The notes under the pieces are model-generated. The model was not told the origin of the DNA. It saw nothing but the letters and a program-made list of their open reading frames with translations, and did no database searches. A stretch of DNA of 63,958 nucleotides, the filler included, from Collodictyon triciliatum (Eukaryota): NCBI GenBank assembly GCA_043381765.1. It is 8 parts of 8 records of this genome, joined end to end, with 100 filler letters (N's around TTAATTAATTAA, not from the genome) between each part and the next. Parts side by side here need not be neighbours in the genome. Positions count along the whole stretch, not along the records: positions 28,531 to 37,918 come from JBHJMP010003033.1; 7 more parts are not named here. The stretch is one strand, 5' to 3'. Made by a program: the position numbers and the translations under genes. Of this stretch, positions 31,678 to 34,600 are shown in pieces (position 1 is the stretch's first letter; every line of letters begins with the position of its first letter).

Positions 31678-34600
31678 TCAAATGAAAAACATGTGGTCTT
31701 CCAAACGGTGATTCACAGAAGGGAATGAATCTGCTGTTGTATCAGAAGATTCGCCACTTAATTTGGACTCTACGTCACTTTCTTGACTTCTGCATCATTC
31801 AATTATAAATGGAACGCATACAAAAACGTACGAAGAAGGTATTGACTTGCATGTTTTTTTCTTCTTGTAAGTGATTTTTGTTAGTGTTTGAAAAAATCAG
31901 CAATAAAATAGATAGACCTTTCGTCATAAAGTCGAGCTCGTTGGGTTGCCAGATGGGCATAATATATCGGGGTTGGGTAGGAAACAGAGCGGGTGCAGCG
32001 CGCGTATTTGTAGCACAGCCGATATGATAGTTCAGCGACGTCATTTGGGCTTAAGTTCGATTCGTCCAAAAGAACGTGGTAATGGCAAGGCTTTGACGTG
32101 GTGTTTGGCTTTTGGAAGAATCATGAAAATTACGAAATAGAGAAGGAAAAAGGGGCAAGATACACGACCGCAGTAATTGTGAAAGGTTTTCATGCCAATA
32201 ATATGGACTTTTTTTTTTTGTTTGTTTGTTTGTTTTTTGTTTTAGAAAAAAAATTGTTGATTTTAGATTATGAGAAAATGCCTGGATAGAAGAGTGGCTG
32301 CACAAATAAAAATCGTAGCGATTTCTGGAGACAATATTTCTGTCGATTACTAAAGTATGGCCAAGATTAAAGAAAAAAACAAAAGACCATATCAGCATTT
32401 GCTTCAGATGAAGATGCAAACATGTCTGCTTTGTTTTCACGATTAATTCTCAAAACAATATAGAGTGCAAAAGCAAGTAAAACAGCTATTTACTGGTCCC
32501 AGGAGCAGCGTTTCTGTTTCGGTCGCATCCATGCTCGCTTTGTGGGAATATTTTCGTATTTGTACGCTTTTGGACGATAATATATGTAACTATTGGTCTA
32601 TGTGAAAGTTAAATTTAACTTATTATTTTTTACCATCCCTTAATGTGGTAATTACTCTATTTAATTACACTGTACCTCAGTAAAATAACACAAAATACGC
32701 GCTGGCTACTACTTACTTGTAACTGGGGTCTATGCTTGTACATGCATCCCGAATAAATTGAATTTCTTGTTTGTAAACGAGCTCGTATTGATTTTCGGTG
32801 ACCCCGCCACGGTAGATGATGATGTGGCCAGGTTTACAACATCTGTCACATGTGAAGGTGAAATACGCATAACCAGAAAGCAAATGAACGTAGAAACAAA
32901 AAGAAAATCGATGACATAAAACAAATCAACCCACTCGGAATTCCTGTCCTTTCGATATCGATAAAATGCCCGAAGTATATCTTTTAGCATATCCTCCATG
33001 TTCAAAATGACTGGGTGGTGCGATTTCTTTGACAAATACCCATTATCATTTTATTTATTTACTTTTTTTACTCGGTTGGACACCATAGTGTGCTCGATTC
33101 AAGCTTCATGCTTTTCATTAAACTCGAGAACGAATGGGATACCATCTAAATTGTATTCGGAAAAGTACTATTTAGATATTTCTGAAAAATTACCTGAGCA
33201 CGGACACGTGCGCAATAGACCGAAGCATCTTCATCCAAAGAGCCCACCAACTAGAAAGATGGCGTTATATATATATTTTTGATACATAAATAAAATAAAT
33301 GGACCCATATGGCGGGTGCGGTGATGAGCTAAAATTACAGCAGTTAGAGATGGCTTTGCTCTATCAACTCCGGCATAGTGGCTAACATTCGCTCCAATAA
33401 TGGTGATGTCTCTCTGGACTTCCCTCTATCGTAAATTTGTTGATTATTTTTATATATCAGTTACTGTTTGGATTATGCTTTTGGAAAACCTCTGCTTGTG
33501 GCCTTGATGAACTGGGTGCATTTGATAAACGTAGGACTCCTACATCACAACTTATACCGCTCAATTTCGCATGCATCTTTAATGCGACGTTTCCGAGATA
33601 CTGAATCTAGAATAATAGCTTTTGAATTCCTCGTTTTTTATATTGATAGGGAATTAAAAAAAAAACGACACAAAGAATTCAAAGAGTGTATATGAGCAAG
33701 ACGAAATTTAAGTGTATTAGCACAGAACTTCAAGCATTCATAAACAGGATGAATAGGTTTATTTCTATTTATTGTATCAATTGTTATGGTACATTTCTTG
33801 ATAAAGTTTTAAATTTAATAGGTAGATATCAATATATACTTAAGATTTCTCTTTACATTTTTCCTGCTGAAAGTAGGCCAGACCAAGCACTGTGTAAGAA
33901 CTCCAATAAGTGCGTCTCCAGCACGCTTCACTTCAGCTGTATAGAAATGTATATGTTTTTATGCAAAGTAAAGAGTTTTTATTAAGTAATCTTATTCTAC
34001 TTTGAAAGAAGAAATGATAAAAATTGGTGGGGATTCTAGATAAAAAAAAAAGTTGTTTGATATTCTCATTATAATTTTCTGTCTTTTTTTTTCGAAATAG
34101 ATGGTAAATAAAAAGAAATACCGTATAAACTAGAACTTTTTTCTCCCAGGATTACAAGAATCATCTGGGGAACAGGATTGAATCGGCGTATCATATTTAC
34201 TGAGTCCTGCAATGTGTCCGAAATAGACCCTTCCATAATGGATAGAAATGTGTTTGTAGAAGAAAAGTAGATAAGGAGGGGGAGATGTTAATGATTTATC
34301 TCATAAAAATATACATCTAAATAAATAAAATAGAACAATAAAGCTTTCATTCTTTTTTTTTTCAACTGTTAAAATTCGATTGGAATTAACAGTATAGAAA
34401 GAAAGAGGCACGAGGCGGGAAGCTATTGTCCTGATAATCCACATATTCATGCATCATAAGTCCATGACAAGAACTCTCTTTCGTGAGTGCACGTATGGCT
34501 GCATCCACTTCCTCTCTCTAGAAACAGTTTTTGATTGAAAATTAAGATGCAATGTTGTTATAATAAATGAAGCAAAGGTACCCAAAAAAATTTTTACAAT

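Follow-up and report, generated by a model that had tools for sequence, protein, structure and literature searches.

The window, the whole stretch of 63,958 nucleotides (filler included) that we analysed from Collodictyon triciliatum, carries an Argonaute gene whose protein reads N, P, G and H at the positions of human AGO2 D597, E637, D669 and H807. We favour, with a probability of about 0.55, the reading that this protein is a functional, non-slicing Argonaute of the AGO clade that would bind guides and act in post-transcriptional silencing via tryptophan-motif partners. As predicted from its residues, it would load 5'-phosphorylated small RNAs, pair with targets without cutting them, and dock GW-type tryptophan-motif partners, leading to a translation block or to decay. 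A first-pass annotation of the same DNA had proposed a guide-loaded, non-slicing repressor. The dead slicer beside an intact guide pocket stands, and guide loading and repression are what such a protein would do; on the other side, a frameshifted transcript assembled from two samples keeps decay or dispensability of the gene alive.

Gene structure and domain organization

The Argonaute gene lies on the minus strand of contig G000:C3033, which occupies window positions 28531-37918 (Table 1). The model has 25 exons on the contig (at least 25 in the gene), with the first exon or exons and the start codon beyond the contig end at 37918. These exons form a single open frame of 855 residues, interrupted by 24 introns (23 GT-AG and one GC-AG). 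In its 2,570 coding letters the genomic allele has neither stop nor frameshift, the splice sites are canonical, and the intact C-terminal MFFI-stop reported in the first-pass annotation is present. The model is collinear with the orthologue from Diphylleia rotans, in which ArgoN, ArgoL1, PAZ, ArgoL2 and Piwi all score over cut-off, giving the domain order N-L1-PAZ-L2-MID-PIWI. The window exons also match Piwi and PAZ directly, Pfam Piwi being over cut-off for two PIWI exons taken singly.

Then, we compared the exons with the runs X1 and X2, two samples of one study that contain 24% of the sampled words; a third run, X3, contained next to none. No run is on record as RNA and the RNA status of X1 and X2 is guessed, the evidence of transcription being their spliced contigs. 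Among the joints listed, at least 14 of the 24 introns were seen as RNA joints (two upstream N-domain introns fall outside the compared stretch), and all 14 agree with the GT-AG introns of the model. The seven junctions of the PIWI region are consistent with the RNA contig coordinates, which require 341 and 172 exon letters where the model has 341 and 172; the 341-letter fit assumes that the contig starts at an adapter-like loose end at 33594, and the donor at 33490 was picked partly by that fit. We take this loose end to be a cDNA adapter.

Table 1. Features of the Argonaute locus and of the two Dicer-like loci (window positions unless a contig is named)
Feature	Position	Strand	Detail or evidence
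Whole Argonaute gene (N, L1, PAZ, L2, MID, PIWI)	31678..37763	-	855-residue frame; D. rotans identity 45-46%; RNA joints
N-domain exons 37763-37649, 37459-37396, 37151-37035	37035..37763	-	GT-AG ends; in frame; orthologue N-domain match
N/L1/PAZ/L2 exons 36899-36843, 36718-36612, 36487-36372, 36231-36141, 35972-35823, 35645-35552, 35418-35236, 35068-35000, 34920-34870	34870..36899	-	X1 and X2 RNA joints
PAZ profile match	G000:C3033:7019-7162		Within N/L1/PAZ/L2 exon block
MID exons 34776-34669, 34517-34412, 34229-34122, 33936-33857, 33606-33490	33490..34776	-	RNA joints; orthologue alignment
Deletion site and premature stop (34449-34447)	34447..34476	-	Both RNA-type contig sets
Tyr, AGO2 Y529, 5'-phosphate pocket	34123..34125	-	Alignment
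Lys, AGO2 K533	33926..33928	-	Alignment
Gln, AGO2 Q545	33890..33892	-	Alignment
Lys, AGO2 K566 (33579-33577) and K570 (33567-33565)	33565..33579	-	Alignment
PIWI exons 33425-33339, 33250-33194, 33026-32935, 32842-32717, 32597-32494, 32349-32282 (GC donor), 32108-31918	31918..33425	-	Pfam Piwi; contig arithmetic; orthologue alignment
Asn at catalytic D597 (orthologue Asp)	33387..33389	-	AAT; codon read and alignment
Pro at glutamate finger E637 (orthologue Gln)	33012..33014	-	CCA; codon read and alignment
Gly at catalytic D669 (orthologue Asp)	32806..32808	-	GGC; codon read and alignment
Two-residue PIWI insertion	32103..32108	-	In 2/395 fetched proteins (both D. rotans isoforms) and the window protein
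His at catalytic H807, retained	31953..31955	-	CAT; codon read and alignment
Final coding exon, MFFI-stop	31678..31789	-	RNA contigs of both runs terminate near 31607; orthologue alignment
Dicer-like locus L071	G000:C3988 2988-2698, 1849-1286	-	RNase III signatures
Dicer-like locus L072	G000:C4059 4256-3975, 3799-3413, 3128-2613	-	RNase III signatures

The catalytic tetrad

All four tetrad codons named in the first-pass annotation were found where it had placed them, and alignment to human AGO2 assigns them to the tetrad positions. The proline had been aligned at E637 by eye; the orthologue is gap-free to AGO2 605-656 and the window protein is gap-free to the orthologue there, which bears the placement out. 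Likewise, the exon carrying the glycine is gap-free to AGO2 660-698, setting it at 669. The protein thus departs from the slicer tetrad DEDX (X being H or D), and the equivalents of R635, H711, H712 and R714 are also altered. The 29-residue exon carrying the asparagine gave no PDB match when searched alone.

The substituted positions are highly conserved: of 284 relatives fetched, 185 cover the region, with D597 kept in 178 and D669 in 184. For E637, where insertions distorted the pairwise count, we relied on a multiple alignment of the window protein with 105 dereplicated rows from the 185 relatives. Among these 106 rows there are 80 DEDH and 6 DEDD tetrads, and N-P-G-H and D-Q-D-H occur once each. 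Altered tetrads of other kinds were present in other fetched AGO proteins (P0193, P0186, P0210, P0166 and P0169), namely an oomycete-type N-D-D-Q and S-V-D-R in Rhizophagus. According to the excerpted text of one study, mutating just the glutamate finger is enough to abolish slicing by yeast AGO, and human AGO does not need the finger for RISC assembly (PMC10772731).

It is highly improbable that the substitutions are assembly errors or that the protein still cuts RNA. A single base separates each substituted codon from Asp (N and G) or from the Gln of the orthologue (Pro), as an error could produce, but RNA and DNA disagree at far fewer than 1 letter in 100, a rate at which three independent errors on catalytic codons are not expected, and the orthologue independently lacks the glutamate. 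Among the RNA differences listed, none falls on a tetrad codon. This agreement is not a strict confirmation, since the RNA table leaves out differences near piece ends and the distance from the codons to an exon end is 14-38 letters; one unlisted RNA difference does exist in the exon carrying the glycine.

The Diphylleia rotans orthologue and the order of loss

The best match of the last PIWI exon, clearly first among 1.84 billion representatives, was the D. rotans Argonaute (EukProt EP00002 P000792/P000793; P0165/P0015), whose full-length isoform has 896 residues. Identity between the window model and this protein is 46% over 796 residues and 58% in PIWI, and none of the remaining full-length proteins among the 12 best exceeds 34%. 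The match marks the source of the gene as probably a diphylleid relative (CRuMs). The two proteins form a clade with support 1.0 and a long stem, share the two-residue PIWI insertion, and the window tip branch measures 0.67 substitutions per site. Two oomycete-type rows appeared as sister of this clade (support 0.87); this is probably long-branch attraction and was set aside. With 390-417 bits for human AGO1-4 and no more than 145 for any PIWI protein, the orthologue falls in the AGO clade; this placement rests on bit scores, as the tree held AGO-like matches without a PIWI outgroup.

No further orthologue was found among the best 150 of 2,353 representatives (D. rotans only), the best 120 of 596 full-length matches and the 113 shorter matches. 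A metagenome scan gave 74 candidates, with none confirmed, and an Atlas search confirmed the family and returned nothing beyond it. For Argonautes of Diphylleia or other CRuMs, a literature search, with supplements and most subscription journals outside its reach, turned up no paper. Folding the C-terminal half of the D. rotans protein from its single sequence gave a mean pLDDT of 34.5, and the model was left out.

The D. rotans tetrad is D-Q-D-H: D597, D669 and H807 are kept and the glutamate finger alone is replaced, by Gln. As yeast AGO stops slicing when this finger is mutated, D. rotans probably already has a poor slicer or a non-slicer; the window protein is in addition without the two metal-binding aspartates. 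On these two taxa, slicer activity was probably lost stepwise, the glutamate finger going first. By parsimony, and with each change a single base, E to Q would have occurred in the ancestor shared with D. rotans, followed in the window lineage by Q to P, D to N and D to G.

Guide pocket, tryptophan pockets and constraint

The MID residues that bind the guide 5'-phosphate, described as persisting in the first-pass annotation, are all there: Y529, K533, Q545 and K566 are retained in the window protein and in 185/185 relatives, and K570 is retained as well. So are H600, R668, E683 and R710, together with K709, H753, R792, R795, Y805 and R812, a set that we chose from general knowledge and take to be the seed contacts. 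The 5'-phosphate pocket and the seed contacts thus both appear fit for guide binding. The R761 equivalent is Lys in the window protein and in the D. rotans orthologue alike. The four MID 5'-phosphate positions agree with those used for the Toxoplasma protein Tg-AGO (PMC2877743, in excerpt).

At the tryptophan-pocket positions K660/L694, F653 and R688, taken from part of a recent preprint (10.1101/2025.10.18.683247), the window protein reads K, I, F and R; at I651 it has Arg. The residues of the three tryptophan pockets, which would bind GW partners, are therefore largely kept, as judged by alignment.

Then, we evaluated if the protein as a whole is decaying. Of the 62 columns conserved in at least 90% of the 104 other rows, 52 are retained in the window protein and 53 in the orthologue, shares that are both below 0.90, compared with a median of 97% and a 5th percentile of 90% for other AGO rows. 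Identity between window protein and orthologue is 82% where columns are conserved and 39% where they vary. The window protein alone has lost five conserved columns, two of which hold the catalytic aspartates (about 0.007 if losses fell at random among 53, calculated by hand and post hoc). Given this retention and the place of the aspartates among the window-only losses, the loss is targeted, on a fast-evolving but constrained protein, and is not general decay. The claim of a dismantled slicer with an intact guide pocket is supported on both counts.

Sole Argonaute and silencing machinery in the genome

All Argonaute-type matches in the 75-Mb assembly fall on C3033, whether the query was a Piwi or PAZ profile, a distant AGO protein, an exon of the gene itself, the orthologue or DNA. 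The orthologue query gave 12 matches, all on C3033, with 11/11 candidates scored. No other Ago or Piwi locus was found in the 14,576-contig assembly with the profiles, three protein queries, two degenerate motif patterns and the DNA query. The two patterns had 30 and 20 matches, against 17 and 14 for reversed controls; 49 of the 50 motif loci are not Argonaute, and the AGO profile scores at the known locus only. These searches are weak for divergent domains, as an ArgoN profile search of the assembly missed this gene's own N domain.

We consider it fairly probable that the window gene is the sole Argonaute of the genome, the C3033 locus being the only one that the paralogue inventory suggested earlier returned from this fragmented assembly. 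Since no other Ago or Piwi was found, the protein looks like the general-purpose Argonaute of the cell. The specialised pathway proposed in the first-pass annotation, if taken to mean a paralogue specialised alongside a slicer, finds no support.

Two RNase III (Dicer/Drosha-like) loci are present in the genome (Table 1). In each, the first signature is intact and the second is without its acidic residues, as judged by eye against a consensus that we take from general knowledge. Both Dicer-like loci found are thus predicted to have a dead RNase IIIb and an intact RNase IIIa. An RdRP was not found in the genome, in a search without a positive control.

A frameshifted transcript

Contigs of both X1 and X2 carry a 2-letter deletion relative to the genome at about 34474, within a short GA repeat of a MID exon. 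The frame shifts and a stop follows at residue 404 of the 797-codon model, inside MID and ahead of the 5'-phosphate pocket and PIWI. Across this exon, it is the frame of the genomic DNA that agrees with the D. rotans orthologue. We rejected a misplaced splice joint as the source of the gap: the contig coordinates run on without a break on either side of it, and no other differences occur in the piece. Among the contigs of X1 and X2 no intact transcript spanning 34474 was seen, and a DNA query of the own assembly did not bring up another allelic contig carrying the deletion. As assembled from the two samples, the transcript represents a null allele, or else both samples have the same artefact; the contigs retain a single allele, and an intact one may be hidden. 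The earlier statement that the gene shows no disablement therefore holds for the genomic DNA, but not for the two RNA-type contig sets.

X1 and X2 contigs also share six listed substitutions relative to the genome, three silent and three at non-conserved residues, too few to decide on selection. X1 alone has one extra letter at 37090.

The gene could be dispensable or recently dying, with selection acting for most of its past, an RNAi pathway now decaying, and null alleles common or fixed in some populations. The same deletion in two samples (of one study) is what this would produce, and so are the altered catalytic residues with the H712 and R635 equivalents, the second RNase III domain dead in both Dicer-like loci and the RdRP missed in the uncontrolled search. 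We hold it to be unlikely: the genomic allele is open throughout with canonical splice sites, conserved columns are retained as well as in the orthologue, and half of the six listed RNA/DNA differences are silent, few as they are. Moreover, the deletion lies in a short repeat, and single-allele contigs may have dropped the intact allele. In favour of a functional protein, a frame intact over 25 exons despite the long tip branch, together with splicing in two guessed-RNA runs, suggests that the gene is at work.

Comparison with known Argonautes

Non-slicing Argonautes are already known and common, and nearly always they are paralogues beside a slicer. Among human proteins, AGO1 and AGO4 are non-slicers, AGO4 having Gly at D669; the non-slicing AGOs coexist with the slicer AGO2 and retain D597 and E637. 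The window protein belongs to the same clade as human AGO1-4 (PDB 4OLA, 4KRE, 5VM9, 6OON) and has guide and tryptophan pocket residues in common with them; unlike in the human set, there are substitutions at three tetrad positions and the genome searches returned no slicer paralogue.

The closest precedent is the single AGO of Toxoplasma, which, in the excerpted report, is without the catalytic triad, keeps the four MID residues, co-sediments with polysomes and is thought to repress translation (PMC2877743). This parallel, a single AGO-like Argonaute of a unicellular eukaryote with the triad absent and the 5'-phosphate residues kept, suggests by analogy that the Collodictyon protein may also be functional. 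The two lineages are unrelated and the losses would be independent, Tg-AGO lying outside our tree. Toxoplasma also has an RdRP and measured small RNAs (same excerpt), whereas in Collodictyon the uncontrolled search returned no RdRP and both Dicer-like loci have a predicted dead RNase IIIb. The Ectocarpus AGO, according to part of its report, is likewise single in its genome and probably acts in translational repression; unlike the window protein, its DEDH tetrad is fully conserved (PMC12867755). Excerpts of other studies describe two AGOs with DDH in Plasmodiophora (PMC13547706) and non-catalytic long-B and short prokaryotic Argonautes (10.1101/2024.10.10.617571). What seems new here is the orthologue one step earlier (D-Q-D-H), the apparently sole Ago/Piwi and the half-dead Dicers alongside.

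A functional non-slicer could also act mainly in the nucleus, silencing the chromatin of transposons or integrated viruses via a GW-tailed helicase or polymerase factor. Its residue pattern would be identical to that of the cytoplasmic or other post-transcriptional silencer that we prefer; in the parts of the sources cited, plant chromatin AGOs bind Pol V GW repeats (10.1101/2025.10.18.683247) and the Toxoplasma AGO is also associated with chromatin repressors (PMC2877743). Nevertheless, the Toxoplasma precedent is mainly polysomal and, a weaker point, no RdRP to amplify guides was found, and a nuclear role appears doubtful to us.

Within post-transcriptional silencing, a more specific and rather improbable reading is a slicer-free, miRNA-like system of diphylleids, combining a D-Q-D-H or N-P-G-H sole Argonaute, RNase IIIa-only Dicers, 3p-type guides and tryptophan-tail partners. 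The Dicer-like enzymes would nick one hairpin arm and yield 3p-type guides, as RNase IIIb-dead human DICER does: in human cells with that enzyme, 5p miRNAs are lost and more 3p strands enter AGO2 (PMC13507251, in excerpt). That half-dead Dicers might feed a non-slicing AGO is speculation by analogy. If it were so, a slicer-free miRNA-like system would exist in the sister group of Amorphea, with an origin separate from the animal one.

In a cell whose sole Argonaute does not cut, silencing and the disposal of passenger strands must both do without slicing. The one precedent found among protists is Toxoplasma, and Collodictyon would add an independent lineage near the Amorphea root, with the D-Q-D-H protein as a living intermediate through which the order of losses in the active site can be tested. 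Should the frameshifted transcript turn out to be typical, the case documents loss of RNAi instead.

Other features of the window and genome

The window consists of contigs joined by N spacers (9399-9498, 18896-18995, 28431-28530, 37919-38018, 46561-46660, 56047-56146 and 62059-62158), and genes across spacers are not necessarily neighbours. On the Argonaute contig, a convergent spliced plus-strand gene occupies 30503-31403, with an intron at about 31191-31298 and a poly-A loose end at 31403; its end and that of the Argonaute transcript are about 200 bases apart, and the one frame examined had no Pfam match. A plus-strand gene at 20308-24600 has a weak FGE-sulfatase-like match (E 0.0013, below cut-off) and presumably resembles the ovothiol synthase OvoA. 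Pfam matches elsewhere in the window include a PX domain (17744-18058, minus), a PALP enzyme (26321-26791, minus), an adenylate/guanylate cyclase (43555-43845, plus), a dynamin GED (52633-52926, plus), a protein kinase (53433-53870, minus) and a RING finger (63231-63794, minus). In the rest of the genome, the nuclear small-subunit rRNA gene is long, with 2,153 bases and AT-rich expansions (L009, G000:C1045 1501-3653), and a second, shorter SSU match lies on C834.
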